A stretch of 64,000 nt of DNA, from the IMG/VR virus record IMGVR_UViG_3300000271_000006, positions 1 through 64,000 of that record. One strand, given 5' to 3'. The notes under the pieces were generated by a model. That model saw only the letters and a program-made list of their open reading frames with translations, searched no databases and was not told the origin of the DNA. Within the stretch, counting starts at the first letter, position 1. Each line of letters starts with the position of its first letter. This DNA is from a virus. Positions 25,933-41,197 of this stretch are shown piece after piece. The position numbers were made by a program, and so were the translations under genes.

Positions 25933-28110
25933 ATGCCGAACCAACTCCCCGACAGCGCGACCGACGAAAGCAACAGTGACAATTTCGGGACAACCCCGGA
26001 AATCAACAGCCGGCTTGAAAACGAGGTTCGTTCAGTAAGCTCCGTAGCGCAGGCTTACGCCATCATTGAAACGATGGTGGCTGATTGGGAGGACGGCATC
26101 AAAAAGGCGGCGCGAATTACGGCCAAGCTCAACGGAGAGCGCCCGTACAACCAAAGCCTACTCAAGAAGGCCGGTAAGGGTCACAAGACCAATATCTCCA
26201 CTCGGTTCCTCGCTACGGAGTGCAACCGGGTGGTTCCGCGTTTCTTCATGCCGATCAAGACGGCCCGCTACCTCACGGCAGCGGCGCTGCCTGCGAATTG
26301 GCCGGACGGTCTTCGCAAGACAGAAATCTTCCGCGAGGCGTTTACGGAGAAGATTCGCTCATGGCCCAAGTTCAACTTTTACATCCGTGGCCTTGCTCGC
26401 GAGGTAGGCATCTTCGGATTCGCGTTCAACGTATTCTTTGACGAGTATAGCTGGCAACCCACCCTGATCCGCATGGACCGGGGGTTCGTGCCAAAGGGAA
26501 CGGAGGTCCTTGAAGAGCCGTCATTCTTTTTGGCGAAGTACAACTATCGCCCAGATGAGCTTCTGGAATTGCTCAAGCGCAACATTGACGGAGGCAGGAC
26601 GGAATGGAAAAAGAAGGCGGTTGTAAATGCGATCAACCATGCCGCCCCCCCCGACACGGAACCAACGGACGAGAATGCGCGGTCCTACGAGGAACTTCTC
26701 CGCCAGTCGGCAGTCGGGTACTCCTATCAAAAGGGGGCAAACCTTGTTGAGACCTACCACCTGTTTGCCAAGGAAACGAGTGGAAAGGTAAGCCATTACG
26801 TGTTTCTGGCTAACGTTGGGTCCGTTAGCGGTGCAGACCGCGCCGAAGCCATGGATGGCAACCAGCTTCTTTACGAGAACATGGACCAATACGAGTCCAT
26901 CAGTGATGCAGTCCACGCCATGGTCTTTGACTACGGTGACGGCACCATTCACGGTTCTTGGGGTGCGGGCGCAATCCTGTACGACCTTGCCGCTATGGTT
27001 GAGAAGATTCGTTGCGACTCGATGGACAATCTTCGCAACACGAACAAGATCAAGGCAAATGTCCCCGACGCCACGAAGGTCAACGACGTAAAGCTCCTTG
27101 TTGACGACGAGATGATGGTGGTTAGCGGCGCTCAGTTCGCCGGCAACTCCGCTGCAATGGGGCAGGAGGTTAACGGGTACGAGGCCCTTGACCAGAAGCT
27201 CGCTTCGCTTGCCCAGCAGCAGATTGGTTCCTTCATCCCGCCCATCCCCCTCCAGCCCTCCGACATCAAGGCCACCCAGATCAACGCGGCCATCTCCAAA
27301 GAACGCGAAATCCAGGAGGCCTTGCTTGAGAACTGGCTGATTCAGTGGGCTTATCTTGCCAAGCCGATTGCGAAGCGCCTTTGCATGAAGGGCTCGCCGG
27401 ACAAGGACGCCAAGGAGTTCCGCAAGCACCTTCTGGAAAAGGGGCTGACAGAGGAGGAAATCCAGTACCTTGCCGAACGCGCTCCCGTTCAGTCGGTCAT
27501 GGAATTTACCGAGTACAAGACCCAGCAGAAGGCCTTGTTTGCGGCGAACATCCTTGGGAATCCCCTCTTCCGTCAGAACGTGGCAGCGCGGACCATGGCG
27601 GCGGGGGCAGGAGACCTTCGTTTCGTGGATGAGATCGTCGTGCCGGAGGGCGATCAATCTGAGCAGATGGAAGCTGCGAGACTCCAACTCATGGAGAACG
27701 CGGCGATGGCGCTTGGCCAGCCGGTTCCCGTTCTGCCCAAGGACAATGATTGGGTGCATATGCAGACGATGGAGCCGGGGCTCTTGGCGGCGATTGAAAG
27801 CAATCAGGCCGAGATTGCGCAAGTCGGACTCCAGCACTACGCAGCCCACTACGAGCAGGGGGTTGCGAAGAAGACTATCCCAAAGGAGGAAATCAATCAG
27901 AAGAAGAGTCTGATTGCGGCCTTGGAGAAGCGCATCGGAGTTATCGTGGAAAATCAGCTCATTGAGCAGCAGAAGGCGCAGGCCCAAGCCACGGCTGAGG
28001 CCGAGGCGCAGCGAATCATTTCGGCGGAGTTGGCCGGCGGCATCCGTCAAGTACCGCGAATTGGGCAGACCGCCCAAATCCCCGAAGGGGCATTCGCGCC
28101 AAACCAATAA
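25933..28110 (+). CDS. putative portal protein
   Basis: ORF track, 725 aa. Size and position (after the terminase region, before the scaffold). No motif recognised. Confidence 0.6.
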   Translation: MPNQLPDSATDESNSDNFGTTPEINSRLENEVRSVSSVAQAYAIIETMVADWEDGIKKAARITAKLNGERPYNQSLLKKAGKGHKTNISTRFLATECNRVVPRFFMPIKTARYLTAAALPANWPDGLRKTEIFREAFTEKIRSWPKFNFYIRGLAREVGIFGFAFNVFFDEYSWQPTLIRMDRGFVPKGTEVLEEPSFFLAKYNYRPDELLELLKRNIDGGRTEWKKKAVVNAINHAAPPDTEPTDENARSYEELLRQSAVGYSYQKGANLVETYHLFAKETSGKVSHYVFLANVGSVSGADRAEAMDGNQLLYENMDQYESISDAVHAMVFDYGDGTIHGSWGAGAILYDLAAMVEKIRCDSMDNLRNTNKIKANVPDATKVNDVKLLVDDEMMVVSGAQFAGNSAAMGQEVNGYEALDQKLASLAQQQIGSFIPPIPLQPSDIKATQINAAISKEREIQEALLENWLIQWAYLAKPIAKRLCMKGSPDKDAKEFRKHLLEKGLTEEEIQYLAERAPVQSVMEFTEYKTQQKALFAANILGNPLFRQNVAARTMAAGAGDLRFVDEIVVPEGDQSEQMEAARLQLMENAAMALGQPVPVLPKDNDWVHMQTMEPGLLAAIESNQAEIAQVGLQHYAAHYEQGVAKKTIPKEEINQKKSLIAALEKRIGVIVENQLIEQQKAQAQATAEAEAQRIISAELAGGIRQVPRIGQTAQIPEGAFAPNQ

Positions 28111-28605: not shown

Positions 28606-30051
28606 ATGGCTGAAACAACGATTGAAGTAGAAAAAGGGGAGGCTTCGCCTGCCACCATCATCACGAAGACGGAGACCCGCGAGGTCTTGGGCAAGGACGG
28701 CAATCCGCTGGCCCTTAATACCGCGTTTGCGGATGCGCTGGCAAAAGCGCAGTCAAAGAAGCTTGGCAAGCCCGTCATTGACGAGGCCCGCGCTAAGGAA
28801 GCGGCCGAGAAGGAGGCAACCGAAGAGCCCAAGGCCGAGACCGAAACGGCTGAGGAATTGCCCAAACCCGAGGAAACCAAGGCTGAGGCCACGGAGACCC
28901 CCGGAGGCGAGGAAAAGCCCGCAGAAGAGAAGGAAGAGGCCAAGGAAACGAAGCCAGAAGCCAAGGAGGAAGACGATGCGATCAAGGACGAGGAGCTTAC
29001 GGTTTTGCCGCACGACAAGCCGAAGACCCGCCGCCGCATCCTTGCCCTCCTTGAAAAGATTGAGAAAGTCAGCAACTCCGAGGCCAACACCAAGAAGGAA
29101 CTCGCCGCCAAGGACGAGAAGTTGAAGGCGCTGGAAGAGGAGCTTGCGAAGGTCAAGACGACAAGCCCCGAGGTAAACGAGGAACTCAAGAAGGAACTGG
29201 ACGAACTCAAGATGCTGCGCCGCCGCTACCAGCTTGAGAACGACCCCGAGGTTCAGACGAAGTTTACCTCCCGAATCGAGGGCGGCGAGAAGACCATCGT
29301 TGGGATGATCCAGAAGAAAGGGGCTTCCGGCGAGGCCATTGCTAAACTGATTGAGGCCGAAGGTGGCTGGCTCAAGTTTAGTGAGTCTGGCCGCGAAATC
29401 CCGCTTGCGGACGGAACGGCCACGACTGCCGCGGAGCTTGCAGACACGATCAAGTCCAAGCTGCCCCTGTCCGAACGCCGGTCCATTGAAGCCCTTGAAC
29501 GGGACATCGTTTCAGCCAAAATTGAAAGGGACCGATTCTTTGAAGAGGAGTCCAAGCGCGCAGACGAATACTTCAAGAAGCAGACCGAATCCCAGAAGAA
29601 GGCTCAGGAGGAGCGCGAACGCCTTGTCGCGGAAAACCAGAAGAAGGCGGACGAATGGACGAAGAAGTTCCTTGCCGCTGACTGGCTCAAGGAAAAGGAC
29701 GGAAGTGACGATGCCGTCAAGGACCACAACGAGTTTGTGAAGCAGGTTAAGGGCGAACTCACGAAGGCCCTTTCCGCCAACTCCCTCGAGGACATGCTTA
29801 AGGTGGTTGAGGACGCAATGGTACTCCACAAGGAGCGCCGCGAACTTGCCGCTGCGCAGGCCCGCATCCAAGCCCTTGAGGCCAAGCTCAAGGAAGAGGA
29901 GGCCAAGTGGGAGAAGCACAAGAAGGCGTCTGCCTCTACGCCCCGATCCGGGTCCATCGCATCCAGCGGTTCGGGAGTGGAGTCCAGCAAGCGCCCAATG
30001 AGCATCGAGGAGGCCATCATCGCCAAGTGGAAGGAGAAGCGTAACGGCTAA
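28606..30051 (+). CDS. putative scaffolding protein
   Basis: ORF track, 481 aa. Very Glu/Lys/Ala-rich with predicted coiled coil, located between the portal and the capsid module. Confidence 0.65.
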   Translation: MAETTIEVEKGEASPATIITKTETREVLGKDGNPLALNTAFADALAKAQSKKLGKPVIDEARAKEAAEKEATEEPKAETETAEELPKPEETKAEATETPGGEEKPAEEKEEAKETKPEAKEEDDAIKDEELTVLPHDKPKTRRRILALLEKIEKVSNSEANTKKELAAKDEKLKALEEELAKVKTTSPEVNEELKKELDELKMLRRRYQLENDPEVQTKFTSRIEGGEKTIVGMIQKKGASGEAIAKLIEAEGGWLKFSESGREIPLADGTATTAAELADTIKSKLPLSERRSIEALERDIVSAKIERDRFFEEESKRADEYFKKQTESQKKAQEERERLVAENQKKADEWTKKFLAADWLKEKDGSDDAVKDHNEFVKQVKGELTKALSANSLEDMLKVVEDAMVLHKERRELAAAQARIQALEAKLKEEEAKWEKHKKASASTPRSGSIASSGSGVESSKRPMSIEEAIIAKWKEKRNG

Positions 30052-30055
30052 GGCA

Positions 30056-30982
30056 ATGGGGCTGGTCAAAAAGGTTCTGGCCAAGATTGATGAACTTGGC
30101 ACCGCAGAGGCGTCTAAGTTCTTTGGGGTAAGCGCGGGCACGATTGCCAACTGGAAGTCGGGCAAATCCAAGCCGTCCATTGAGGCGGCGGAGCTTTGCC
30201 TCGGTTTTGGCGAACCCCCAACCACAAAGGACGAAGACGACTTCTTCACGGATTGGGAAGGCAAGGACTTGCTGATCCTCATCCCTGCCTACCAATACAT
30301 GAACCCCAAGACCCACTTCTCCCTCTTTGCGAACTACGCGAAGTACGGGCCGGAGAAGATCGGAATCCTTTACAAGCAAAGGACCCTCATCGGAGAGGCG
30401 CGATCCGTCCTCATCAACAAAGCCATGCAGGGCAAGGCCAACAACTTCCTGTTCGTCGACAACGATATGGTCCTGCCATTTGGCAACGAAGGGGTCTTTA
30501 ATGGGAGGTATCGGGCCGGGGTAAAGCCTGAGACGGCAAGGCTGAACGCCATCTCCCGTATCATGAGCCACCCCGAGGACAAGGGAATCGTTGGGGGGCT
30601 CTACTACGGACGCAATGAGTACGGAGTACCGCAATGCGGCCAAGGCTTCCGCAACAAAGACAACTCTGATTTCCGCAAGGGCAAGTATTCGGGGTTAATG
30701 GAAACCGAGTTTGTCGGTACAGGATTCATGCTCATCCGCCGATGGGTCATTGAAAAGATGAAGGAGGCGATTGACTCCGGCAAGTGGCCGGAGTGCAAGC
30801 CGATCAAGGAGGGTTCCCATTACGGGTACTTCACTCACCCGACCGGACAAGGAGAGGACTTAAGTTTTTGCTTGCGTGCCGCGCAAATCGGAATCAAGAC
30901 CTACGTGGATACCGACTTGGTGTGCCTCCACGAAGGGGACATGCTGTTCGGCCCGCGCACCACAAAAGACAAGCCTCAATGA
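30056..30982 (+). CDS. HTH-domain / GT-A (family 2-like) glycosyltransferase fusion
   Basis: ORF track, 308 aa. N-terminal Cro/C1-like FFGVSAGTIANWKSGKSKPS, then LILIPAY..., the DxD motif FVDNDM, and GEDLSFCLRAAQIGIK. Confidence 0.65.
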   Translation: MGLVKKVLAKIDELGTAEASKFFGVSAGTIANWKSGKSKPSIEAAELCLGFGEPPTTKDEDDFFTDWEGKDLLILIPAYQYMNPKTHFSLFANYAKYGPEKIGILYKQRTLIGEARSVLINKAMQGKANNFLFVDNDMVLPFGNEGVFNGRYRAGVKPETARLNAISRIMSHPEDKGIVGGLYYGRNEYGVPQCGQGFRNKDNSDFRKGKYSGLMETEFVGTGFMLIRRWVIEKMKEAIDSGKWPECKPIKEGSHYGYFTHPTGQGEDLSFCLRAAQIGIKTYVDTDLVCLHEGDMLFGPRTTKDKPQ

Positions 30983-31524
30983 AGTTTTCTCGCACATGGG
31001 CAATGCCAAGTGAGGACACGTTTAGCGTCCCACCAATTGGCGCATTTGTGCGCAGTTATCTAAGCTCCGCCAATGTGTCTGTTGATCCTTTCGCTCGCGA
31101 TAAACGCTGGGCAACGCACACCAATGACCTAAACCCGGCTACGCAGGCCGAATACCACTTGGACGCTGAAAAGTTCCTTATGATGCTTGGCAAGCAGGGT
31201 GTAAAAGCGGACCTAGTAATCTTCGACCCGCCATACAGCCCGCGCCAAATCAGCGAGTGCTACAAGTCGGTCGGGCTAGAAGTAGGCATGAAGGAAACGC
31301 AGTCGGCGCTGCTCTATCAGCGCGTGCGCAACGCCATAGTGCCAATCCTCACGGAGGGCGCCATCGTACTTTCGTTTGGGTGGAATACCGTTGGCATGGG
31401 AAAAAAGCGCGGATTTGAGATAATTGAAATCCTGCTGTGCTGTCATGGTGGTGCGCACAATGATACGATTTGCATGGCCGAGAGGCGGGTTAAGGATTGT
31501 CAGCAACAAATAAAATTCCTTTGA
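30979..31524 (+). CDS. putative DNA methyltransferase (DPPY motif)
   Basis: ORF track 30784..31524. ATG 30979 makes an ATGA overlap. DLVIFDPPYSPRQ matches motif IV of N6A/N4C methyltransferases. Confidence 0.6.
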   Translation: MKFSRTWAMPSEDTFSVPPIGAFVRSYLSSANVSVDPFARDKRWATHTNDLNPATQAEYHLDAEKFLMMLGKQGVKADLVIFDPPYSPRQISECYKSVGLEVGMKETQSALLYQRVRNAIVPILTEGAIVLSFGWNTVGMGKKRGFEIIEILLCCHGGAHNDTICMAERRVKDCQQQIKFL

Positions 31525-32243
31525 TGAAAACCTACGAACTGAAATCTAACAAGAACAAGCTGGACGCCATTGTGGGCGTGGCAGCTACGGGCAACGACCT
31601 AAAGGAATCGGTCCATTGGGTTGACTCCGCCGCGCTTGCCATCTTGCACGTTCCGGACGGCTTTACGCCCGCCCAGGGGCGGCAGGGCACGGTCTTTGTG
31701 CGCCACCCCAGCCACCCGCCCATGATTGGCGCGATCCTTCGCGATGCCGCAACCCGCTTCATCAGAGGCGAGTGCGTGGCGTTTGCGCGAACGGATGTGG
31801 CCTTTGAAACCGACCTGCGCCACATCCACGACTACATTGAAAAGCATGGGCTGGGGCGGACTTGGGTAATCGGAACCGCAGACTTCATCATCCTGAGTAA
31901 CGCCGTCGTCAAAGCGGTGGCCAATTCGGGAGAGCTTGACTTCATCCCCGCAACCGACCTTGTTTCAGCCATCACGAAAGTAGCCAAAACAAGGGTGGGC
32001 CACAACCGCTACCATAGCGGCGTCTACTTGAATATCGGCTACCCCAAGGTTTATGCTGAGGCAACGGAGCCCGCCCCATTCTCGTTTAGTGAGTCGGTGG
32101 CGGAAGAGTACGGCTTCGGCGACCGGGTCCACGTTGAAACCACGGCAAGTAACGCGAGTACGGTGACGGTTTCGGTTGACGCGAGTGAGAAGTCGTCAAC
32201 AAAGGCGAAGCGAGGCCGCAAACCAAGGAAAGTCGTCAAGTAA
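31524..32243 (+). CDS. hypothetical protein
   Basis: ORF track 31497..32243. ATG 31524 shares 1 nt with the upstream stop. Basic C-terminal tail KAKRGRKPRKVVK. Confidence 0.6.
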   Translation: MKTYELKSNKNKLDAIVGVAATGNDLKESVHWVDSAALAILHVPDGFTPAQGRQGTVFVRHPSHPPMIGAILRDAATRFIRGECVAFARTDVAFETDLRHIHDYIEKHGLGRTWVIGTADFIILSNAVVKAVANSGELDFIPATDLVSAITKVAKTRVGHNRYHSGVYLNIGYPKVYAEATEPAPFSFSESVAEEYGFGDRVHVETTASNASTVTVSVDASEKSSTKAKRGRKPRKVVK

Positions 32244-32284
32244 GGCGAACATCCGGGATTAGGGACGCGCCGGTACTGCCTCCC

Positions 32285-32394
32285 CCGAACTCCTGAGATG
32301 AGCCACACGGCGCGAAAACTTTATGGAAACTCAAACTAAAAAAACCACCGGAGAAGGACAGACCGCCGTGTTGCGCTCTGGCGATTTGTTCGGC
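32285..32394 (+). repeat. attC-like structured inverted repeat (copy 12)
   Basis: CCGAAC-TCCTGAGAT-GAGCCACACGGCG-[loop with ATG 32323]-CGCCGTGTTGCGCTC-TGGCGATTT-GTTCGGC. 13 bp with two bulges, and the outer boxes are complementary. Confidence 0.75.
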
Positions 32395-32757
32395 GAGACC
32401 GTCCGCAAGCACAACCTCGCGGTCGAATCACTGACAGAGCAACAGCTCGCTGAAGTCATCCGTCAGGCTATCGCATCCGGTGACATCGTGCGGAACGTGA
32501 CGCACGACGGCTCCGCGCAGGCGATCACCTACATCCCATATCGCGAGGTCTCGCGCCTGCGGGACCAGTATCACGAACTACTCTATGCGGTCGCCAGCAA
32601 GCATGACGGCGAGACGCGACACGAGACAGCCCTGCGCTACATCAAGGAGCGCGAAGACCACTCGTGCGGCGACTGCGATCCGTGCTTGGGTGGGCGACCC
32701 GACCAATGCGCTCTTTCTTCGCCGAAGAAGGCGGATATGCCGACGTGCAGTGAATAA
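32323..32757 (+). CDS. hypothetical protein (single accessory cassette ORF)
   Basis: ORF track, 144 aa. The ATG lies in the loop of repeat 32285..32394. The C-terminus KKADMPTCSE is encoded by the shared 54-nt segment. Confidence 0.5.
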   Translation: METQTKKTTGEGQTAVLRSGDLFGETVRKHNLAVESLTEQQLAEVIRQAIASGDIVRNVTHDGSAQAITYIPYREVSRLRDQYHELLYAVASKHDGETRHETALRYIKEREDHSCGDCDPCLGGRPDQCALSSPKKADMPTCSE

Positions 32758-32768
32758 GTTTAACTAAT
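32715..32768 (+). repeat. 54-nt segment shared (inverted) with 12930..12983
   Basis: See the partner entry. It forms the promoter-distal end of the single-cassette insertion after 31524..32243. Confidence 0.85.
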
Positions 32769-32821
32769 AGCAAGCAAGACAAGTATTCCTATTCTTACTT
32801 GTTACGAAATAAACTCACTTT

Positions 32822-34132
32822 ATGGCAAGTGAAGGAGTAATGACACTTGGCAGGTTTGGGGACGTGATTATCTCGCTCCCAATCGCCCATAGGCTTGCCG
32901 AGCAGGCAGGCCAACCAACGCGGTTCTACGTCAGCCGTGACTTTTCCTCAATCATGGACGGGGTAAGCTATGTTGCTCCCGTAGTCATTGACCTGCCCTA
33001 CAACAATCTTCCAGAGGCATTGCGCCTTACCCCGCCGAACGTAAGGGTTGCGCAGTACCACACCAACCCAAACCGCTCCCGCCAAACCAAGTCCTTCCAG
33101 TCTGAGGCATGGCGGTTGGCTGGGATGGACCCTAACTTGGCCAATTCGGTTCCGATCTTCGACCGCCGAAGCCCCGAGCGCGAAAGGGCTCTCATAGCCG
33201 CTATTCCCAAGCCATATATCCTTTTTTGCGGATTCTCCCATAGCAGCCCATTCCCAAAGGCAGAAAGCCTCTTAAAAGCCCTGCAAACCGCCTTCCCATG
33301 CCACTACGTTTACGACATCGGCAACCTGCGAGCGGAACGGGTCTATGACCTGATCGGCCTGATGGACGAAGCGGAACTGCTTGTCACGGTGGACACGATG
33401 CACCTCCACCTTAGCCGCGCATCCAAAGTGCCTTCGGTAGTGATTACGAATAATGGGTGGTACGGTTCGCTACCTCCGCCCAACTGCGTCTCGTGGACTA
33501 GTTACGCTTCCGTAACGGCATACAATCTTGTGCTTACCTGCTCTGCTGCGCTAGGTCGCGCTAGCCAGCTACTCCACGTCGTCAGTCCTTATGGCGAAAA
33601 CGAGCGCCAAACGCAGGCAATGGCTACATGGGAGAACCCAATTAAGGTGGGCGCAGAGACGATCAACCAAGTTCTTGCCTCCCATAAGTGTAGCGACAGG
33701 GACGTGATCCTTTGGACCAACAACGACATCCAGCTTAACGATGAACTGCGCAAGAAAATCCACGACCACGTAAGCGTTTACGGTTGCGCATCCTTCCACC
33801 GCAACGAAGAAGGGCATGTAGGCAGGGATGGTTTTGCGTTTAGGGCTGACGTGCTGGCTAAGATGCTCCCGCGCATCCCCAGGTTCTACTTAGGCTACCC
33901 CATGTTTGACCTAGTGATTGCTGCCATGATCCGCGAATACCACGGCCTGCGTAAATCAACCTTGGGGAACATGGCGGAAAGAATCTTTCCAGCCGAGATT
34001 CCCGGTTTCGCGCTACCCCACGAACCCCATAAGAGCGAATGGGTTGGCCGCGACTCCCACCCCAAATACCAAGAGAACAGAAAAAATGCGCTTGACTGGA
34101 CTAGGCGGTTTATGCCTTCGTTGGCGTTATGA
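32822..34132 (+). CDS. putative glycosyltransferase (GT9/heptosyltransferase-like N-domain)
   Basis: ORF track, 436 aa. N-terminal MTLGRFGDVIISLPIAHRLAEQ resembles the GT9 opening motif. The rest is unassigned. Confidence 0.5.
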   Translation: MASEGVMTLGRFGDVIISLPIAHRLAEQAGQPTRFYVSRDFSSIMDGVSYVAPVVIDLPYNNLPEALRLTPPNVRVAQYHTNPNRSRQTKSFQSEAWRLAGMDPNLANSVPIFDRRSPERERALIAAIPKPYILFCGFSHSSPFPKAESLLKALQTAFPCHYVYDIGNLRAERVYDLIGLMDEAELLVTVDTMHLHLSRASKVPSVVITNNGWYGSLPPPNCVSWTSYASVTAYNLVLTCSAALGRASQLLHVVSPYGENERQTQAMATWENPIKVGAETINQVLASHKCSDRDVILWTNNDIQLNDELRKKIHDHVSVYGCASFHRNEEGHVGRDGFAFRADVLAKMLPRIPRFYLGYPMFDLVIAAMIREYHGLRKSTLGNMAERIFPAEIPGFALPHEPHKSEWVGRDSHPKYQENRKNALDWTRRFMPSLAL

Positions 34133-34584
34133 GAGGAATCCAATTTGGTTCAGGCGGTCGTAAGATTGATGGATGGGCTAACCATGATCGGGATTTGGAC
34201 ATCTCGGTTACGCCATTCAAGATTCCTGACAACCATTACGACGCAGCATTTGCGTCCCACGTTGTTGAGCATATCACCGGCCCGCAAGCCCTGCGATTCT
34301 TTCAGGAGTGCCACCGAATCATTAAGCCGGGAGGCTGGCTGCGAATCTCAATCCCGGTAGTAGGCCCTTGGCTCACCCTTGACCACGCCCGCGACCTCAC
34401 CGTAAACCACGGCCACCTTTGCTGTTGGAATGAGGACTTGCTTCGCGCCTTCTTTTGGATGGCTGGGTTTGACCAGCAAAAAACCCGCAGGGTTGATCGG
34501 GATGACCGCTACGACCGCCACCACCTTGAAATTGGAGAAGAGCTTGACGCTATCGAAAGCTGCCGGATGATTGCTTGGAAATGA
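34129..34584 (+). CDS. class I SAM-dependent methyltransferase (type 11-like)
   Basis: ORF track, 151 aa, with IQFGSGGRKIDGWANHD and ASHVVEHITGPQALRFFQECHRIIKPGGWLRISIP. Confidence 0.7.
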   Translation: MRGIQFGSGGRKIDGWANHDRDLDISVTPFKIPDNHYDAAFASHVVEHITGPQALRFFQECHRIIKPGGWLRISIPVVGPWLTLDHARDLTVNHGHLCCWNEDLLRAFFWMAGFDQQKTRRVDRDDRYDRHHLEIGEELDAIESCRMIAWK

Positions 34585-34648
34585 AGGAAATAAGGCTTTC
34601 CAATTCCGATCTTGTCGCAGTGGTTGACGACGAAGACTACGATCTAGT

Positions 34649-35344
34649 ATGAAATACCTACTTGGCAGCGGCTATTACCGCCCGGAAAACAGCGGCTACG
34701 ATCTATTCAAGTATAATTGGGCGGAAAATACGGCTAAGGCTGCCCCAGCACCAAACATGGTGGTAATTATTTGCGCGGGCCACGAGGCCCCGGAGACCGT
34801 TGGTGCATTTCACCCAATACAAGCACTTGAACTTCGCATGGGTCAGAATTTAGGCCATGTTGGCGACCTGCTTAACGGAAGTAAAGCATATGAGTTTTGT
34901 GGATGGTCTGCCTCGGTTCTTGCCCTAGCCCTGCTGGCATACAATGCCGAACTAGACTTGCTTTACAAAGAATCTGATGCCCTAGCCTTCGGCCCTTGGG
35001 TAGAGCGCATGTACGCAGATATGGGCGACGGAGATATGGTGTTCGGGCGAAAGATGAACAGCCCGCCCTACATGGCCTGCTCCCAAAGCCTGTTCCTGAT
35101 CCGCCACCGATTCCTGCCGGCCTTCGTAGCCTCCTACATCGCAATGGGGAAGGACGGGGACCCGCACAACCTACCCGAGACCAAGTTTGCCAAGTTGGAA
35201 GAGATTATCGGGACAGACCGGATTAAGCGGCTTAGTTTTGGCGTGGATCGAGAAAGACCTATTCCTTGGGACGACGAGGTTTTCTTTGCTCAGAAGTGGA
35301 CCGATGAGGAACTTAACGAAGCCAAGCGAAGGGAGTTGATATGA
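34649..35344 (+). CDS. hypothetical protein in glycosylation cluster
   Basis: ORF track, 231 aa. Confidence 0.6.
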   Translation: MKYLLGSGYYRPENSGYDLFKYNWAENTAKAAPAPNMVVIICAGHEAPETVGAFHPIQALELRMGQNLGHVGDLLNGSKAYEFCGWSASVLALALLAYNAELDLLYKESDALAFGPWVERMYADMGDGDMVFGRKMNSPPYMACSQSLFLIRHRFLPAFVASYIAMGKDGDPHNLPETKFAKLEEIIGTDRIKRLSFGVDRERPIPWDDEVFFAQKWTDEELNEAKRRELI

Positions 35345-35925
35345 CCGACCAAACCGTCCACCTTATCCACCTAGGAGAGCCGAGTGGTTACGCCTACGGC
35401 CAAGCCCGCGAAGCTGTTAACTCCTTTAACGCGATGGGCAATCCTTGCGCGCTATGGGAGGAGGACGACCTTCGCCTGCGCTATGGTAGGGCTTTGGTGA
35501 ACCGAGTCGTCATGGACTTCCCCTCGCTTGCCGGCGCAAGCAACGTGTTCCGCCTCTGGGTCATCAACGACTTCGGGGGTATCTACGCCGATACGGACAT
35601 CATCTGCCACAAGCCAATCCACAAGCTCTTTGAGCACGAGGCATTCGGCGCAATCCAAGATGACGAAGGCCGCATCTGCAATGCGTTCTTTGGTGCTCGC
35701 AAAAACCACCCATGGATTCGGTGGCAGATTGACCATGTTTACGAATACAAGGGGCTTGGGGCGTACTGGGGGGTTGACCTAATGAGCCGCGCCCCTCGCG
35801 AGGGAGTAACGCTTATCGACCCCGCAATCTGCTACCCCTATTCATGGACAACCCCAAAGGACGAACGCAAACTAAAGCCCGAAACGCTCGTTGAGCACAA
35901 ATGGGCTGGGAGCTGGATCAAATGA
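35341..35925 (+). CDS. glycosyltransferase, DXD sugar-binding type (GT32-like)
   Basis: ORF track, 194 aa. SNVFRLWVINDFGGIYADTDI matches the Gly_transf_sug signature. Confidence 0.65.
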   Translation: MTDQTVHLIHLGEPSGYAYGQAREAVNSFNAMGNPCALWEEDDLRLRYGRALVNRVVMDFPSLAGASNVFRLWVINDFGGIYADTDIICHKPIHKLFEHEAFGAIQDDEGRICNAFFGARKNHPWIRWQIDHVYEYKGLGAYWGVDLMSRAPREGVTLIDPAICYPYSWTTPKDERKLKPETLVEHKWAGSWIK

Positions 35926-36719
35926 TCCTAATTTTTACAATCTGCCGCAATGGGATGCCGTTCATCAAGCATCACATTGAGGAGTTCAAGAAGCTGGACG
36001 AACCTTGGGAGTGGTACATTGCGGAGGGCGCATCCAACAACAAGCGGGATACGGCGTGGTGCGCGACTCCCGAGCCAGGCCTTTCGGGCGATGGCACGAC
36101 GGAGTACCTGCAAAAGCTATCGGTCGCCAACGACAACGTTTTCGTCTACCGCAACCGTCTTTGGCCATGCAAGACCTCAATGGTCAATACGCTTACCTCG
36201 GCCATGCACAACGACGGGGTGCTCATTCAGGTTGACGTGGATGAGTTCTGGACGGCGGAGCAACTTGCTAAAATCTCGTTCCTGTTTCGCGCCAACCCAA
36301 CCTACACCGCAGCAAGGTTTGACTGCCGGTACTACGTAGGCAAAAACCTGGCCAGCGTTAAACGCGGAACATACGGCAATAATCCGGGAGAATGGGTCAG
36401 GGCTTGGCGGTTCAAGGTGGGCGATACCTTCAAGTCCCATGAGCCCCCCGTCATGCACGGCCCGCAACCCCGCATCATTGACAACGAGACAACGCGGAAG
36501 TGCGGGCTTGTCTTTGACCACCTAAGCTGGGTGTTCCCCGATCAGGTCAAGAAGAAGGAGAAGTTTTACAAGTACGAGGGAGCCTATGCTGGCTGGGAAA
36601 GGCTGCAATCCAATGACAAATTCCCCGCCCCCCTAAATCGGTTCTTGCCTTGGGTGGATAAGGGGGCTGTTGTGGACCGAATCAACCCGCCAGAACGAAT
36701 CCAACGAATCTTTCAATAG
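35922..36719 (+). CDS. putative GT-A glycosyltransferase (family 2-like)
   Basis: ORF track 35901..36719. ATG 35922 makes an ATGA overlap. Contains MILIFTICRNGMPFI..., DGTTEYL and VDVDEFW. Confidence 0.55.
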   Translation: MILIFTICRNGMPFIKHHIEEFKKLDEPWEWYIAEGASNNKRDTAWCATPEPGLSGDGTTEYLQKLSVANDNVFVYRNRLWPCKTSMVNTLTSAMHNDGVLIQVDVDEFWTAEQLAKISFLFRANPTYTAARFDCRYYVGKNLASVKRGTYGNNPGEWVRAWRFKVGDTFKSHEPPVMHGPQPRIIDNETTRKCGLVFDHLSWVFPDQVKKKEKFYKYEGAYAGWERLQSNDKFPAPLNRFLPWVDKGAVVDRINPPERIQRIFQ

Positions 36720-36720
36720 T

Positions 36721-36870
36721 ATGAATACTACGAATCGACTCGGGCCACACGCACCCGAAACACAGAAGGTGCTCGACGCCGGGCTGCACGAGCGAGCGGC
36801 TGATCTGCCGCCTGAGTTGGCACAATGGCGCGATGCTGCTCCCGACAGCCCGTTTCCGCCGAACTCCTAA
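36721..36870 (+). CDS. 49-aa ORF (accessory array D, d1)
   Basis: ORF track 36670..36870. ATG 36721 comes directly after the upstream stop. Its TAA stop lies in the spacer of repeat 36859..36957. Confidence 0.35.
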   Translation: MNTTNRLGPHAPETQKVLDAGLHERAADLPPELAQWRDAAPDSPFPPNS

Positions 36871-36957
36871 GATGTGCAAGATGCACCAACTCTATCACTC
36901 TATAAAAAACACTAAAAACGTCCGCTGGTGCATCTTGGCACTGGCGATTTGTTCGGC
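36859..36957 (+). repeat. attC-like structured inverted repeat (copy 13)
   Basis: CCGAAC-TCCTAAGAT-GTGCAAGATGCACCA-[37-nt loop, no ATG]-TGGTGCATCTTGGCAC-TGGCGATTT-GTTCGGC. 15 bp with one bulge. Confidence 0.75.
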
Positions 36958-37138
36958 CTTCTGCGCGTCCGGCTGTATGGATTCACGCACGCTAGCCAAA
37001 GATGCGCCAGAAGTTCTGCAAACCATCGAACTGCAAGGCTGTGAATACTTCTTCACGGAGTTCAGTGCCCGCCAATCCAACAACTATGCGGTGGCGATCA
37101 ACGCCTCGGCCGAGGCGGAGGGGGAAGTGTTTGGGTGA
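36872..37138 (+). CDS. putative secreted protein or lipoprotein (d2)
   Basis: ORF track 36833..37138. MCKMHQLYHSIKNTKNVRWCILALAICSAFCASGCMD has a signal peptide with an imperfect lipobox (ASGC). The signal peptide is encoded by the 3' arm of repeat 36859..36957. Confidence 0.5.
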   Translation: MCKMHQLYHSIKNTKNVRWCILALAICSAFCASGCMDSRTLAKDAPEVLQTIELQGCEYFFTEFSARQSNNYAVAINASAEAEGEVFG

Positions 37139-37210
37139 ACCATGCGGAAGAGGCGTCTCTCATGGTCCAGAATTTCTGTCAGCCAACCGAAAATCAAAAA
37201 TCCAATACAA

Positions 37211-37265
37211 TGAACAATGCCATGAGCCATGAGCGAAGCGAATTGGCTCCATGAGCTGGTTGGAC
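37211..37265 (+). repeat. attC-like structured inverted repeat (copy 14, short)
   Basis: GAACAATGCCAT-GAGCCA-[14 nt]-TGGCTC-CATGAGCTG-GTTGGAC. An alternative upstream 5' arm CAGCCAAC-CGAAAA lies at 37180. Confidence 0.55.
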
Positions 37266-37594
37266 TCCGTAATAACTTTTTAAATACAATGAAAGCATCC
37301 GATTACAAAATGACCGTGAATCAGCGCATCGAGGTCGAGCATCTGACCGAAAGGGCGCAGGACGATCTAGAGTCCACGCTAGCTCGCCTGGTGTGCCAGC
37401 GCGACCTAGCAATAGAGGGCGCAACCAAGCAAAAGGCCGAATCCGACGATCAGGCCCAATGGGCCAAGGATGCCAGCGCACGAATGAACCGCATGGAAGA
37501 CGCCATCCGCGCGGTGCTGGCGGTCAATATACCGCTGCCGTCTGGACTCGGGGCGCAACTCTGCAACGCCATCGAATACAACGAAAAACCATGA
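37229..37594 (+). CDS. hypothetical protein (d3)
   Basis: ORF track, 121 aa. An alternative in-frame ATG at 37289 (MKASDYK) lies 23 nt after the GTTGGAC box. Confidence 0.5.
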   Translation: MSEANWLHELVGLRNNFLNTMKASDYKMTVNQRIEVEHLTERAQDDLESTLARLVCQRDLAIEGATKQKAESDDQAQWAKDASARMNRMEDAIRAVLAVNIPLPSGLGAQLCNAIEYNEKP

Positions 37595-37986
37595 ACCGAG
37601 AAATCTTTAATCTCTTCGCAGACAACAAACCGCTTCCGAAAAATGCCATGCTCCGAGGCGAACCGATTTCGCGCATCGCACTTGAAAGCGCGAACAAAGT
37701 CCCGAACCACATGAGCGAACACGTTCCGTTCTGGGTGCTCGGTTGGCGTGACCTGCATGATGACCTTACGATCCGCTCAGAAGCTGTCTGCTACGGCGGG
37801 CCGTGGGACGGTCGCGAAGTCATCGACGCGGGCGAATACAAGGCCGAGAAACTCGACCGCCAAACGGGGCTGATCCACGTCTATGAGCGCAGCGCACGCG
37901 GCTTTGACTACCGGGGCACGCAGCTTTTCGGCTCTCTGTCCAACAATAAGCTGACCGGCGCGGGCAGCAGCCCGCGTTCGGTCTAA
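37591..37986 (+). CDS. hypothetical protein (d4)
   Basis: ORF track 37393..37986. ATG 37591 makes an ATGA overlap (MNREIFNLFADNKPLPKN...). Confidence 0.55.
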   Translation: MNREIFNLFADNKPLPKNAMLRGEPISRIALESANKVPNHMSEHVPFWVLGWRDLHDDLTIRSEAVCYGGPWDGREVIDAGEYKAEKLDRQTGLIHVYERSARGFDYRGTQLFGSLSNNKLTGAGSSPRSV

Positions 37987-38006
37987 CGCCTTGTTCGCCA
38001 ATTTTT

Positions 38007-38333
38007 ATGAACACCGAAGGACCTCGAAAATTCACTATTCCGCGGCGCTCCGTAACCGAATGCGGAGCCTGCAAGTATCACGTCTGTCATAGCTCTTTCC
38101 ACACCCGTAGCGGATCGGGCGGGTGGCGCGATTATGCCTGCTCGCATCCCGACGCATTCAAAGACGAATCGCTTGTCGGCGTGGCACCGGAAGAAAACGC
38201 GGCGCTCGTGGCGCACATCGCCGCGATTGAGAAGCAGAGCTACGGGGGCCGGCTGATTGGTCGCACCGAAGCGACGCCCAACTGGTGCCCATATTTGGCG
38301 AACACCAAGGTGAGCCACACGGCCGGGAAATAA
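38007..38333 (+). CDS. Cys-rich hypothetical protein (d5)
   Basis: ORF track, 108 aa. Its stop lies in the loop of repeat 38297..38418. Confidence 0.5.
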   Translation: MNTEGPRKFTIPRRSVTECGACKYHVCHSSFHTRSGSGGWRDYACSHPDAFKDESLVGVAPEENAALVAHIAAIEKQSYGGRLIGRTEATPNWCPYLANTKVSHTAGK

Positions 38334-38418
38334 CTCTATGAGCAATACAACCGAACAGAAAACCCCTGATGCGAGTAGCGCGGCCAATGGCCGTGTTGGC
38401 TCTAGCGATTTGTTAGCC
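38297..38418 (+). repeat. attC-like structured inverted repeat (copy 15)
   Basis: GGCGAAC-n8-GAGCCACACGGCC-[loop with the stop of d5 and ATG 38338]-GGCCGTGTTGGCTC-TAGCGATTT-GTTAGCC. 13 bp with one bulge. Confidence 0.75.
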
Positions 38419-38553
38419 GCTTTGGGCGGAAGCATGTGTGTAAGCGGCGAAGTGCTGACCGGGCAGCGCGCACTCGACTACATCGAAACAATGCACCCGG
38501 TGGACCGCGGATCACTCGTGGAAGACCTGCGCAGCCTCGAAATGCTCAAATAA
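38338..38553 (+). CDS. hypothetical protein (d6)
   Basis: ORF track, 71 aa. The ATG lies in the loop of repeat 38297..38418. Confidence 0.5.
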   Translation: MSNTTEQKTPDASSAANGRVGSSDLLAALGGSMCVSGEVLTGQRALDYIETMHPVDRGSLVEDLRSLEMLK

Positions 38554-38554
38554 T

Positions 38555-38755
38555 ATGGACTTCTCTGGAATGCCCGGACCGGGCGCTTTCTTCTTCGTCG
38601 CGGCCCTCGTGTGCTCGCTTCTCGCAACTCTCGTCGGCGTGGCCCTAAAGCTCGGCGGCGTGCTCTTGCTCTCGTGGTGGTGGGTGCTTTCGCCGCTGCC
38701 TATTCTGCTCGTGCTGGCGGTAATCGTGGCCGGCCTCGGAGCTTTGTTCGGCTAA
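38555..38755 (+). CDS. two-TM membrane protein (d7)
   Basis: ORF track, 66 aa, strongly hydrophobic. It ends in ...GALFG, encoded by a degenerate GTTCGGC box. Confidence 0.5.
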   Translation: MDFSGMPGPGAFFFVAALVCSLLATLVGVALKLGGVLLLSWWWVLSPLPILLVLAVIVAGLGALFG

Positions 38756-38779
38756 CGACCAAGGTCAGACACGCTCGCC

Positions 38780-39088
38780 ATGAAGAATAATAAAATCCCC
38801 GCGCGTAGAACCAGCTCCCGAAAACGGACGGCTGGCGAGCGTTGTTCTGTAGCGACTGGTTCTCATGCCGTGCGCAAACGGCGGGACTCCTTCGACATCG
38901 GCCAAGCCGCGAGGATCAAGGGACTCAAGCGGATCGATAACCCCTACGAAGGCTTTTCGTATTCGTGGTATGGGTGGGACGCCGGATGGTCTGTCGAAGA
39001 CCAGAATCTCGGGCATGAGAACGCTGAGGTCTCGCACAGAGACCGGGAGCGCCAGCCCGATGCCGATCAACCACCCAAGCAACCCTAA
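38780..39088 (+). CDS. ribosome-modulation-factor (Rmf)-like domain protein (d8)
   Basis: ORF track, 102 aa. FDIGQAARIKGLKRIDNPYEGFSYSWYGWDAGWS fits the G..A...G......NPY.....W..GW pattern of Rmf-like proteins. Confidence 0.45.
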   Translation: MKNNKIPARRTSSRKRTAGERCSVATGSHAVRKRRDSFDIGQAARIKGLKRIDNPYEGFSYSWYGWDAGWSVEDQNLGHENAEVSHRDRERQPDADQPPKQP

Positions 39089-39136
39089 AACTCAACTACA
39101 AGGCGGGTCTCTGTTGCGAGCACCGTTTTGTTCTGC
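39017..39136 (+). repeat. attC-like structured inverted repeat (copy 16)
   Basis: GAGAAC-n8-CTCGCACAGAGACC-[loop with the stop of d8]-GGTCTCTGTTGCGAG-CACCGTTTT-GTTCTGC. 14 bp with one bulge. The arm sequence co-varies relative to other copies. Confidence 0.7.
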
Positions 39137-39168
39137 CTCTTGAAAATCTCCGACAACACCAAGAAACC

Positions 39169-39444
39169 ATGAAAATAAAACAGATTATCGACCGCACGAA
39201 AACCGAATATGAATATTCCGATCCCCACGGATCAGCAACCACAACGCTCGCCGCGCTGAACCTGCTCGCGGAAATCGAGAGGTGGCTATCTGAGGGTGCC
39301 ACGCTAAAGGCCACGAATGCCGATGGATTCGGATTCGAGATATTGGAAGATGGTTCCGTGCGATCTGAAATGACGATCACCGGGGCTAAGGCAGGCGTCA
39401 TCTTGTACCGGCAGAACGTTCCCGATGAGCCACGCGGAAAATGA
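39169..39444 (+). CDS. hypothetical protein (d9)
   Basis: ORF track, 91 aa. It starts 32 nt after repeat 39017..39136. Confidence 0.5.
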   Translation: MKIKQIIDRTKTEYEYSDPHGSATTTLAALNLLAEIERWLSEGATLKATNADGFGFEILEDGSVRSEMTITGAKAGVILYRQNVPDEPRGK

Positions 39445-39500
39445 AGCCTGAACAACACAAGCAGCCGTCGCCCGCGTTGCGCTCTGGCGGGTGGTTGGGG
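39412..39500 (+). repeat. attC-like structured inverted repeat (copy 17)
   Basis: CAGAAC-GTTCCCGAT-GAGCCACGCGG-[loop with ATG 39441]-CCGCGTTGCGCTC-TGGCGGGTG-GTTGGGG. Confidence 0.65.
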
Positions 39501-39641
39501 GCGCCCTCGGCAATCGTCTGCGTGAAGATCGAAGACGACGGCCTTCCTCCGTGCCCTCTCTGCGGAGGACCACTAAAAGACGACTGGCACGGCGTCGCCG
39601 CATGCTTCTGCAACTTCGGCGGGCAACCGCCACGAATTTAA
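39441..39641 (+). CDS. small zinc-ribbon-like protein (d10)
   Basis: ORF track, 66 aa, with CPLC...C.C. The ATG lies in the loop of repeat 39412..39500. Confidence 0.45.
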   Translation: MKPEQHKQPSPALRSGGWLGAPSAIVCVKIEDDGLPPCPLCGGPLKDDWHGVAACFCNFGGQPPRI

Positions 39642-39644
39642 GCC

Positions 39645-39751
39645 CCCAACAGTCGGGATGAGCTAACGGCGCCCCCGACCCCCGACCACAAATGAACTCT
39701 TGCGAAAACCAAGTGAGCCCCGTCGCCGTTAGCTCTGGCCCGTGGTTCGGA
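39645..39751 (+). repeat. attC-like structured inverted repeat (copy 18)
   Basis: CCCAAC-AGTCGGGAT-GAGCTAACGGCG-[loop with ATG 39692]-CGCCGTTAGCTC-TGGCCCGTG-GTTCGGA. Perfect 12-bp stem with a compensatory C>T / G>A change relative to the consensus. Confidence 0.8.
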
Positions 39752-39973
39752 AGTTCAGGACGTGAGAAGCACTGCAAGACCATCGATGCCATCCCGGCGT
39801 GGAAACGCTTCCTGCTTTGCTGGCTATCGTATCGCAAATGGAAGCTGGCTCGCGCCTGCGACCACGCAGCAATCCACGCGCTGAAACGTCTCGACGACTA
39901 CGCGCTATTCGACCGCCTGCTGCGCGTGTCTGACGCCCAATGGGCTGAAATTTTCAATCTTCCGAACAAGTGA
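39692..39973 (+). CDS. hypothetical protein (d11)
   Basis: ORF track, 93 aa. The ATG lies in the loop of repeat 39645..39751. Confidence 0.45.
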   Translation: MNSCENQVSPVAVSSGPWFGSSGREKHCKTIDAIPAWKRFLLCWLSYRKWKLARACDHAAIHALKRLDDYALFDRLLRVSDAQWAEIFNLPNK

Positions 39974-40001
39974 TTCTGGAAAGGCGTCTTCGTATATCAG
40001 C

Positions 40002-40875: not shown

Positions 40876-40964
40876 TGCATTATCCTGCAAGGTTACGCAT
40901 TACGCGCCTCTTTCCGTGGATTATTTGCCATGGCATAAGTTTTTACAAATAGGTCAAATTAGGC

Positions 40965-40993
40965 TTGACCTGCATAAGATTCTCTAATCTAAT
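40965..40993 (+). promoter_or_regulatory. sigma70-like promoter candidate upstream of the capsid gene
   Basis: TTGACC-n17-TCTAAT, about 200 nt upstream of ATG 41198. Confidence 0.4.
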
Positions 40994-41197
40994 AGGGGTG
41001 CGGTAAATTGAGATGGGGCTGTAGGCCGCACTAATCGCCCCAAATCGTAGGCAAGACTCTATTCCGTCGCCGGGAAACCAAAGCGAGGTCCACGAAGGAT
41101 TTCGCGGTAATCCAAACGGTGGCGGAGCCTGCGACCCAAGAAAAGGAAGCGGAGGAAGCTACCGAACAGCAAGGTAACTTCAAATTCTACTTCCTAA

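Follow-up and report, generated by a model that had tools for sequence, protein, structure and literature searches.

A glycosyltransferase island beside the presumed capsid gene of an uncultured phage lineage: a candidate virion glycosylation system

Between positions 30056 and 40772 of a 64,000-nucleotide stretch of metagenomic viral DNA (IMG/VR record IMGVR_UViG_3300000271_000006, positions 1 to 64,000; the whole stretch is here called the window), an island of glycosyltransferase (GT), methyltransferase (MT) and uncharacterised genes is found between a gene presumed to encode the scaffold and a candidate gene for the major capsid protein (MCP). In our best reading, to which we give a probability of roughly 0.4, the enzymes of the island would attach glycans to virion proteins. 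The virion is favoured as the target because the genes are co-oriented and tightly packed, because they are deeply co-conserved with their neighbours, and because remote homologues of the GT-A fold enzyme of the island lie among the structural genes of unrelated phages. In addition to that, the enzymes have no transmembrane segments and are not accompanied by a flippase or a polymerase, and protein glycosylation in the cytoplasm therefore fits. Judged by its genes, the island resembles virus-encoded glycosylation machinery, from which it differs in its enzyme families, its architecture of a conserved frame around a variable core and its position in the head block.

The window represents most of a metagenomic phage genome of approximately 70 kb, and its proteins recur on a 69,916-bp contig and on Logan contigs of the run SRR845265. 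For the region from 28 to 43 kb megablast found no nucleotide match in GenBank phages, and across the genome there are very few PHROG or Pfam matches. Since the contigs of the relatives come from IMG/VR and from a Lake Loclat metagenome-assembled genome (MAG), the lineage is probably a freshwater one, uncultured and widespread. The scan of genome contigs gave a 2.7 kb fragment of the Lake Loclat MAG as its sole match.

Gene order and its conservation

The region from the presumed portal gene to the capsid candidate contains the following genes and elements (aa, amino acids; ORF, open reading frame; HTH, helix-turn-helix; SAM, S-adenosylmethionine).

25933-28110, + strand: conserved 725-aa protein, presumed portal; 56-62% identical in all relatives
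28606-30051, + strand: 481-aa acidic, E/K-rich coiled coil (isoelectric point 5.3), presumed scaffold; 38-42% identical in all relatives
30056-30982, + strand: HTH (residues ~1-50) fused to a GT-A fold glycosyltransferase, as predicted by AlphaFold2 (AF2) and Foldseek
31003-31524 (alternative start 30979), + strand: small DPPY adenine DNA methyltransferase
31524-32243, + strand: 'X' family protein; follows the HTH-GT gene in most relatives examined
32323-32757, + strand: 144-aa ORF with a Cys-rich C-terminus; only in this window
32822-34132, + strand: two-domain protein, N-terminal GT9-like (GT-B) domain and C-terminal domain with conserved acidic residues ('TNNDIQ')
34129-34584, + strand: small class I SAM-dependent methyltransferase (Methyltransf_11/23)
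34649-35344, + strand: 231-aa protein
35341-35925, + strand: DXD glycosyltransferase (Gly_transf_sug, GT32-like; 'ADTD' motif)
35901-36719 (likely start 35922), + strand: GT2-like GT-A glycosyltransferase ('DVDE' motif)
36833-39973, + strand: about ten small ORFs (66-131 aa), variable cargo without a homologue in any relative compared
40002-40772, + strand: conserved last gene of the island (motifs GWPxGPN, ExDCxP and HxNGN)
40960-41197, + strand: TTGAC box and structured leader of ~200 nt; conserved, separating the island from the capsid gene
41198-42442, + strand: 414-aa MCP candidate, the most conserved protein of the lineage

Nearly all genes of the window are on the + strand from approximately 16 kb onward. 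Their order is the gene at 19455, the primase/helicase gene, the 725-aa gene, two small ORFs, the coiled-coil gene, the island, the gap, the capsid candidate and the fibre genes, which encode collagen-like and Ig-domain proteins. The island comprises about 20 genes in the window. From 28606 to 40772 neighbouring frames are spaced by -25 to +113 nt, and a gap of 425 nt then precedes the start of 41198. A scan for promoter- and terminator-like sites showed no excess over shuffled sequence in this region. Each ORF named in a preliminary description of this DNA does exist on the + strand, but the end coordinate given there, 36719, cuts the island, to which the ten or so small ORFs that lack conservation and, as its last gene, the conserved 40002-40772 still belong.

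Related loci were compared at two depths: the first comparison covered eight relatives from IMG/VR, and a wider scan covered 46 loci, 40 of which have enough sequence upstream of the capsid gene (loci are designated L002, L003 and so on). The order common to the eight is the 725-aa gene, the coiled-coil gene, the HTH-GT gene, a variable set of genes, the 40002-like gene and the capsid gene, and this framed arrangement is also seen in eight of the nine distinct relatives among the loci first examined. The 725-aa gene is always upstream of the coiled-coil gene, and the coiled-coil gene always lies between it and the HTH-GT gene; a search by hidden Markov model (HMM) detected the 725-aa protein in a distant clade too. 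Of the 40 assessable loci, 32 have a gene of the HTH-GT family, detected with HMMs, upstream of the capsid candidate, among them loci of a clade with a capsid identity of only 34-38%; most of the 32 add a gene of the 40002 family and often a DUF6492-like gene. Where the 40002-family gene is present (seven of the eight relatives, at 30-47% identity), it is always situated just upstream of the capsid leader. The X gene of the window is linked by blastp to L002_245 and L009_216, and by HMM to proteins in L045-L053.

The genes inside this frame are far less constant. In L009, the closest relative (72% capsid identity), the slot holds three genes only, HTH-GT, X and 40002-like, as against eight in L003 and about 20 in the window; overall the count spans 2 to ~20. 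L003 alone shares the GT9-like, Methyltransf_11, 34649-like and GT2-like genes of the window, in identical order. Several relatives add a DUF6492-like gene, and some a Methyltransf_24 domain, a beta-helix protein (L002, L006 and L007) or an HNH endonuclease, the last being an HNH/AP2 endonuclease gene just upstream of the capsid leader in L011 (9219-9764). On the gene content of these loci, the island is a conserved frame around genes that are exchanged rapidly, and such varied middle content among close relatives is as expected of a diversifying surface glycan.

The labels of the head genes are given by position. They are likely because of the gene order, the composition of the coiled coil, the conservation of 41198 (60-73% identity across the best 120 of 193 homologues) and the dedicated leader upstream of it. 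No profile or structure search confirmed the scaffold, capsid and portal labels. The proteins at 25933, 28606 and 41198 had no significant match in Pfam, PHROGs, PDB profile or GenBank-phage tblastn searches, the coiled coil giving only sub-threshold Pfam matches. The AF2 model of the capsid candidate is poor (predicted local distance difference test score, pLDDT, 44); its five best Foldseek matches are HK97-fold capsid proteins, at non-significant E-values of 0.17-0.97. With a permissive threshold, PHROGs gave no consistent family for 38 homologues of the capsid candidate, and nothing was found when its profile and that of the portal-like protein were aligned by hhalign with the MCP and portal annotated in phage MW202711. 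In homologues of the capsid candidate, a conserved Cys is followed by a C-terminal tail that is variable and S/T(/G)-rich (STCTSLTDTSL is one example). The capsids of L005 and L006 are without the last ~5-7 residues of this tail, and the same two loci are without GT genes in the slot.

Enzymes of the island

The fusion of an HTH to a GT proposed earlier for 30056 is confirmed at the level of the predicted structure. Its AF2 model, built from 34 homologues, has a pLDDT of 92, and in a Foldseek search of the PDB the best match was the GT-A enzyme A197 of Sulfolobus turreted icosahedral virus (STIV; PDB 2c0n; E 7e-9, TM score 0.68, target-normalised). The GT domains of human LH3 and COLGALT1 rank second, together with the Megavirus lysyl hydroxylase/GT K7YEL3 (E ~1e-8), and further matches include B4GALNT1 (~2e-6) and GalNAc-T2 (~8e-5). 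The best structural matches are protein-glycosylating GT-A enzymes, the STIV enzyme among them, and the capsid protein of STIV is glycosylated. Altogether 30 PDB entries were matched at E <= 1e-3, essentially all of them GT-A enzymes or nucleotidyltransferases, and in BFVD the protein matched many viral GT-A proteins at E-values down to 7e-16. In Pfam 30056 has a weak HTH_3 match (E 0.0094; 1.6e-4 for its L003 orthologue) and no GT2 match; it also matches phrog_1574. D135 and D137 are invariant in the family (DND in the window, DDD in the consensus), and E267 and D268 (GED) are at least 90% conserved. There are 114 homologues, which reside on contigs of 50-76 kb, and about 15% of them lack the HTH. 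PDB searches with the single sequences of 30056, 32822 and 35901 were empty, as was the PDB profile search with the GT part of the HTH-GT family (profile A5).

A remote homologue of the HTH-GT catalytic domain is encoded right after the MCP gene in MW202711, an unrelated, podovirus-like phage. Another remote GT-A homologue, in the cyanomyophage Synechococcus phage ACG-2014f, is located amid tail-collar fibre genes and adjoins a further GT gene and an epimerase gene.

The protein of the 40002 family at the other end of the frame was one of two unknowns in the preliminary description. It now turns out to be a member of an unannotated family with 360 members in a library of representatives at 50% identity. 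The family has no Pfam or PDB match, its profile (A7) gave an empty PDB search, and tblastn found no match in GenBank phages. Larger proteins carry the 40002-family domain in fusion with GT2, GT9, Nucleotid_trans or DUF6492 domains, and L007 (8414-9793) has it in fusion with Methyltransf_24. By these fusions the family clearly belongs to glycan-building protein architectures. The other of the two unknowns, 34649, is still without a family, as the family searches run gave no match; it has a 55% identical orthologue in the same order in L003 and is, by this comparison, co-inherited with the neighbouring GT and MT genes.

Several enzyme calls for the exchangeable middle set stood up to profile searches. 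The type-11 SAM-dependent MT at 34129, which has an orthologue in L003, matches Methyltransf_11 and Methyltransf_23 at E-values of 7e-9 and 6e-8, respectively. The DXD GT32-like enzyme at 35341 matches Gly_transf_sug (PF04488) at 2.5e-8 and has an additional weak match to the TcdA/TcdB GTs. The GT2-like assignment of 35901 is supported through its 49% identical L003 orthologue, which matches Pfam GT2 at 8.5e-8, while the window protein itself reaches only E 0.06. For 32822 the GT9-like assignment is supported but borderline. The hallmark GT9 motifs are an N-terminal G-D-x-x-x-x-x-P and a C-terminal D-T-G-x-x-H-L, and the family profile matches the heptosyltransferase WaaC at both of them (E 0.0017); seven of 38 homologues match Pfam GT9 (PF01075; best 2.4e-4), the window protein itself does not, and tblastn against GenBank phages found no match for it. 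There are 97 homologues of this protein, some carrying Pfam GT9, GT2 or GH130 domains, and its two domains are separate ORFs in L003. The X family is remotely akin to the C-terminal domain of the GT9-like protein (residues 275-375 of profile A2; hhalign probability 69.5%, E 4e-5). No other link among the island families was detected with hhalign, and an NCBIfam search added nothing useful for the island proteins. When segments of 19 residues were scored for hydrophobicity, none in the island enzymes exceeded the threshold for a transmembrane segment, and the enzymes are therefore predicted to be soluble.

The DPPY enzyme, which had been counted among the glycan enzymes, is a real MT of a different kind. 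It matches the PHROG family 'DNA methyltransferase' (phrog_11619) at 6e-39 and is, over its full length, 42-48% identical to proteins that are annotated as adenine DNA methylases in phages of Croceibacter, Erwinia, Serratia, Streptococcus and Staphylococcus; it is missing from all eight relatives compared. A role as glycan MT was rejected because of its matches to adenine DNA methylases of many unrelated phages, and the protein is DNA methylase cargo, probably standing outside the glycan pathway. Among the small ORFs further downstream, 36833-37138 has a lipoprotein-like signal (…LAICSAFCASGC) and 38555-38755 encodes a small membrane protein with a strongly hydrophobic segment; both could be morons of the superinfection-exclusion type.

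Virion, host envelope or DNA as the target

If the island glycosylates the virion, its soluble enzymes would be made together with the structural proteins and would use nucleotide sugars of the host and SAM in the cytoplasm, so that short, partly O-methylated glycans are placed on virion proteins before or during assembly. The likeliest acceptors would be the fibres, the capsid protein (perhaps at its exposed C-terminal tail, which is S/T-rich) or both. The conserved frame (the HTH-GT-A enzyme, the X protein and the 40002-family protein) may carry out the basal steps, and the swappable middle (the GT9-like, Methyltransf_11, 34649, GT32-like and GT2-like proteins) may extend and cap the glycan, which would make the surface glycan differ among related phages. 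A GT2-MT fusion protein encoded at 54455 may separately serve the adjacent trio of collagen-like fibre genes. A stronger version, which we consider doubtful, holds that an ancient module of HTH-GT-A enzyme, DUF6492-like GT and 40002-family protein in the head operon routinely glycosylates the MCP while the swappable set diversifies and O-methylates the glycan, and that the collagen trio with its GT-MT gene is a mobile cassette shared across unrelated phages. The preliminary description had likewise proposed a methylated glycan on the virion; the GTs, the SAM-dependent MT and the conserved linkage to structural genes speak in its favour, and we infer the virion acceptor from that linkage.

The fibre genes concerned lie downstream of the capsid candidate:

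52146-54417, + strand: three tandem collagen-like genes (GxQ repeats, Cys-rich ends)
54455-55681, + strand: bifunctional protein with GT2 ('DHDDE' motif) and Methyltransf_11 domains (precomputed Pfam matches; TuaG-like at 1.6e-4)

The genome does encode five collagen-like proteins, as stated earlier. The analogy drawn with BclA and with giant-virus collagens fails on the composition of the repeats. Of 244 triplets, 53% have Q at the Y position, 8% T, 5% S and 0.8% (2/244) K. Glycosylation of the hydroxylysine type (LH3, COLGALT1, Mimivirus L230) was rejected on the scarcity of Lys, since the LH3, COLGALT1 and Megavirus enzymes glycosylate hydroxylysine, and the BclA type, on Thr of GPT triplets, was rejected on the same composition. 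No 2-oxoglutarate-dependent hydroxylase is on record among the precomputed family matches for the genome. The HTH-GT gene is also kept in relatives in which no collagen-like gene was detected in the DNA examined. Because the repeats are of the GxQ type, the likeness of the HTH-GT to LH3 and COLGALT1 is best read as generic GT-A similarity.

The GT2-MT fusion gene begins 38 nt after the third collagen-like gene. In six of six assessable IMG/VR homologues of at least 45% identity, which occur in at least three genomic backgrounds, collagen-like genes are found just upstream on the same strand: the trio in L021, L023, L024 and L025, a gene for a 633-aa collagen-like protein in L026 (a 225 kb contig), and a collagen-like gene three genes upstream in L027. 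Among homologues of 39% identity or less, none of 16 has a collagen-like gene within 6 kb. In the L021-L025 group the fusion protein shares 50-53% identity with that of the window, whereas the structural proteins encoded on its flanks share only 24-27% and differ in arrangement. This far better conservation of the fusion than of its flanks points to the trio and the GT-MT gene being a functionally coupled, mobile cassette. The three collagen-like proteins possibly form a heterotrimeric fibre. The linkage is the best support within this genome for modification of fibres by a GT-MT.

To our knowledge, phage virion glycosylation has so far been demonstrated only in a few mycobacteriophages, where it shields the particles from antibodies. 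Mycobacteriophages (Che8, Corndog and Myrna) are reported to glycosylate capsid and tail-tube proteins with their own GTs (Freeman et al. 2023, as summarised in PMC12363180 and PMC12619734); the glycans are reported to be located at C-termini, and the accessory system to be spread across clusters (PMC12363180, PMC12619734, PMC11256854). In cluster F1 the GT genes do not adjoin the capsid gene but are located towards the right genome end (PMC11256854), and the positional precedent cited in the preliminary description, actinophage GTs next to capsid genes, is inaccurate for that cluster. The island is similar to these systems in that the GTs are encoded by the phage and have an accessory distribution. 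Beyond the generic GT-A fold there is no sequence kinship, Ardmore gp87 being the 50th BFVD match of 30056 (E 3.6e-5). Unlike the mycobacteriophage systems, the island has methyltransferases, a GT9-like protein and uncharacterised families, and it belongs to a phage with an aquatic host.

In the chlorovirus PBCV-1 (Paramecium bursaria chlorella virus 1), virus-encoded enzymes, among them the GT-GT-methyltransferase A064R, build a methylated glycan on the major capsid protein in several cytoplasmic steps; PBCV-1 is a eukaryotic giant virus, and its glycosylation genes are dispersed in the genome. Fused GT and MT domains are seen there as in the 54455-55681 protein of the window, and the link in sequence to the island is limited to one BFVD match of 30056 (Q98454, E 1.3e-7). 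The likeness of 30056 to Ardmore gp87 and Q98454 is at the level of the generic GT-A fold, and neither of these is one of the GTs proven to glycosylate virions (Che8 gp110, Corndog gp38 and PBCV-1 A064R). STIV A197 resembles 30056 in being a small GT-A enzyme of a virus, with a DXD motif, although it comes from an archaeal virus, is 16% identical to 30056 and is without the HTH. The GT clusters of pelagimyophages and cyanomyophages are situated in tail-fibre regions of T4-like phages and have been interpreted as modifying the host O-chain (PMC7029224). Similarly to the island, they place several GT genes amid structural genes of aquatic phages, in a variable region; the island differs in that it lies in the head block of an unrelated lineage with genomes of ~70 kb and has conserved GT-related genes as its frame.

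A number of points weigh against virion glycosylation by the island. The identities of capsid, scaffold and portal are candidate ones based on position, and the virion-protein acceptor is likewise proposed from gene linkage. One of the two MTs claimed for the glycan is a DNA methylase. The collagen analogy is not supported by the chemistry of the repeats, and the gene genuinely linked to the collagen-like genes is, on the loci compared, the one at 54455-55681, not the 30056 island. The HTH on the core GT has no role in the model and is left unexplained by it. The L005/L006 sub-lineage has no GT gene in the slot, and the GT genes are therefore dispensable for head assembly; a correlation of the capsid tail with GT presence, prompted by these two loci, was not upheld cleanly in the 46 loci. 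Since the slot also holds unrelated cargo (the DNA methylase, the lipoprotein-like ORF, the HNH endonuclease of L011), position by itself says little about the variable GTs, some of which could be host-directed accessory genes. The GT9 and GT32-like families are best known from lipopolysaccharide (LPS) and cell-surface glycan synthesis. The genome also appears to be temperate, judging from an integrase N-terminal domain, so that a lysogenic conversion of the host surface is conceivable.

The last points lead to the explanation that soluble GTs and the MT remodel the host envelope, acting during infection or lysogeny on lipid-linked or core glycans (LPS core, O-antigen, capsule or wall polysaccharide), whereby receptors would be masked and competing phages excluded. 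We consider this rather unlikely. In its favour, the relatives of the GT9-like protein are LPS heptosyltransferases, the GT32-like and TuaG-like matches come from surface-glycan families, the integrase fragment suggests lysogeny, the slot has moron-like cargo including the lipoprotein-like ORF, and the pelagimyophage clusters in hypervariable structural regions are read in this way (PMC7029224). Classical O-antigen conversion is argued against by the lack of membrane components: there are no GtrA/B/C- or Wzx/Wzy-type membrane proteins and no membrane-anchored GT, and GtrB ranks only 32nd-34th (E ~1e-3) in the Foldseek search of 30056. A cytoplasmic action on lipid-linked host glycans is still compatible with that lack. 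It is also argued against by the position of the island, which is not adjacent to integrase and attP but ~30 kb from the integrase domain, within co-oriented structural genes and without an excess of promoter- or terminator-like sites. Conservation of the flanking GT genes with the head genes across a deep clade would be unusual for conversion morons, and the presence of LPS in the host is not to be assumed. The LPS conversion that the preliminary description had set as a counter-case is disfavoured for want of a Gtr-type membrane component. Alternatively, there may be no single pathway, the gap between scaffold and capsid genes being a hot spot of insertion in which GTs with different, possibly non-virion targets have gathered and only the flanks share a function. 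The DNA methylase, the ten or so ORFans, the lipoprotein-like ORF, the HNH endonuclease, the beta-helix proteins, the range of 2 to ~20 genes and the absence of all GT genes from L005/L006 agree with such a hot spot. It is nevertheless unlikely, as the GT9-like, Methyltransf_11, 34649-like and GT2-like genes occur together in L003 in the order of the window, travelling as a unit like genes of a pathway, and as the same domains are repeatedly fused elsewhere (GT2 with GT9 and the 40002 family; the 40002 family with Methyltransf_24).

Glycosylation of DNA, in which the HTH-fused GT-A enzyme, perhaps with other GTs, would add sugars to the bases of phage DNA as a defence against restriction, is kept alive by the DNA-binding-type HTH on the core GT, though at a low probability. 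The R...DDD...ED pattern of motifs resembles that of phage DNA GT-A enzymes and JGT (bioRxiv 10.1101/2023.12.21.572611), a DNA methylase gene adjoins, and DNA glycans built by several GTs are known (bioRxiv 10.1101/2023.12.21.572611; PMC13326640). Such glycosylation starts from 5-hydroxymethylcytosine, 5-hydroxymethyluracil or 5-hydroxycytosine (5hmC, 5hmU or 5hoC), bases made by ThyA homologues or by C5-MTs with TET-like enzymes, the genes of which are usually clustered with the GTs (bioRxiv 10.1101/2023.12.21.572611; PMC13326640). Hypermodification clusters share with the island several GT-A and GT-B enzymes and the generic GT-A motifs, and what defines them is a C5-MT together with 5mYOX, or else a ThyA homologue, in the neighbourhood. 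No ThyA-like, TET/5mYOX or C5-MT gene, and thus no source of hydroxylated pyrimidines, is on record for the ~70 kb genome in the precomputed Pfam matches of the contigs covering it or in the PHROG matches, the sensitivity of which is limited in so divergent a phage; the Pfam records are incomplete, as a metallophosphoesterase seen by PHROGs has no Pfam entry. On this ground, sugar transfer to DNA bases, the other counter-case of the preliminary description, is disfavoured. The adjoining methylase is of the adenine DPPY type and missing from the relatives, a share of the HTH-GT homologues (~15%) do without the HTH, and the motif pattern is generic for GT-A enzymes. The best structural matches of 30056 are protein or lipid GTs, and T4 AGT and BGT and JGT/TarP-like enzymes are not among its top 50 PDB matches.

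Should glycosylation of the virion by the island hold true, virus-built surface glycans would be widespread in environmental phages and not restricted to actinophages, and glycan loci of phages would consist of a conserved frame and exchangeable parts, like bacterial O-antigen loci. This would matter for the recognition of receptors, for the stability of the particles, for grazing and immune recognition, and for the engineering of phages. Whether the GT clusters in structural regions of aquatic phages act on the virion, on the host surface or on DNA is a general question of the field, and the small soluble proteins of the island make it directly testable. The high-confidence model of the HTH-GT-A enzyme, the 360-member 40002 family and the collagen trio with its GT-MT cassette offer handles for such work.

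Capsid leader RNA and other features of the genome

The leader is contained in the 425-nt gap before the start codon of the capsid candidate, and its TTGAC box is similar to a -35 element. Counterparts are found just upstream of the capsid genes in L002, L003, L004, L006-L009 and L011. At ~40998-41045 an H-type pseudoknot can be drawn (stem S1, GTGCGGT/GCCGCAC; stem S2, TGGGGC/GCCCCA), which is present in nine of nine phages with stem sequences that differ and yet stay complementary. Each sequence pairs 11-19 bp in the pseudoknot; shuffled sequences have a mean of 2, and 7% of them reach at least 11 bp. Other pairings in the leader are a conserved hairpin (TTCC-GTCGCCG-GGAA) and one of long range, GGTGAC/GTCACC. 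In Rfam the leader matched no family at E <= 0.1. The leader could represent a previously undescribed RNA element that regulates capsid expression in cis.

Three further features are found outside the region described above:

477-992, - strand: gene with a phage integrase N-terminal SAM-like domain; the adjacent gene runs off the end of the window
19455, + strand: conserved 636-aa protein, first in the + strand order
22937-25855, + strand: primase/helicase (972 aa) interrupted by a LAGLIDADG intein

The integrase domain gene suggests that the phage is temperate. The primase/helicase has 972 aa in the window and 601-612 aa in L008 and L009, the extra part being a LAGLIDADG intein-like insert. 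The comparison took in 22937-25855 of the window and positions 1-444 of L009. In L009 the homologue of the 636-aa protein has 1117 aa and carries Hint and LAGLIDADG domains. As the window and L009 carry the inteins in opposite genes, inteins seem to have been gained or lost in two essential genes of the lineage. The early leftward region also encodes a Methyltransf_24 protein (9904-10461, - strand) and a dGTP_diPhyd_N protein (11613-12251, - strand), and in the late region a weak match to Acetyltransf_1 is found at 58749-59195 (+ strand).

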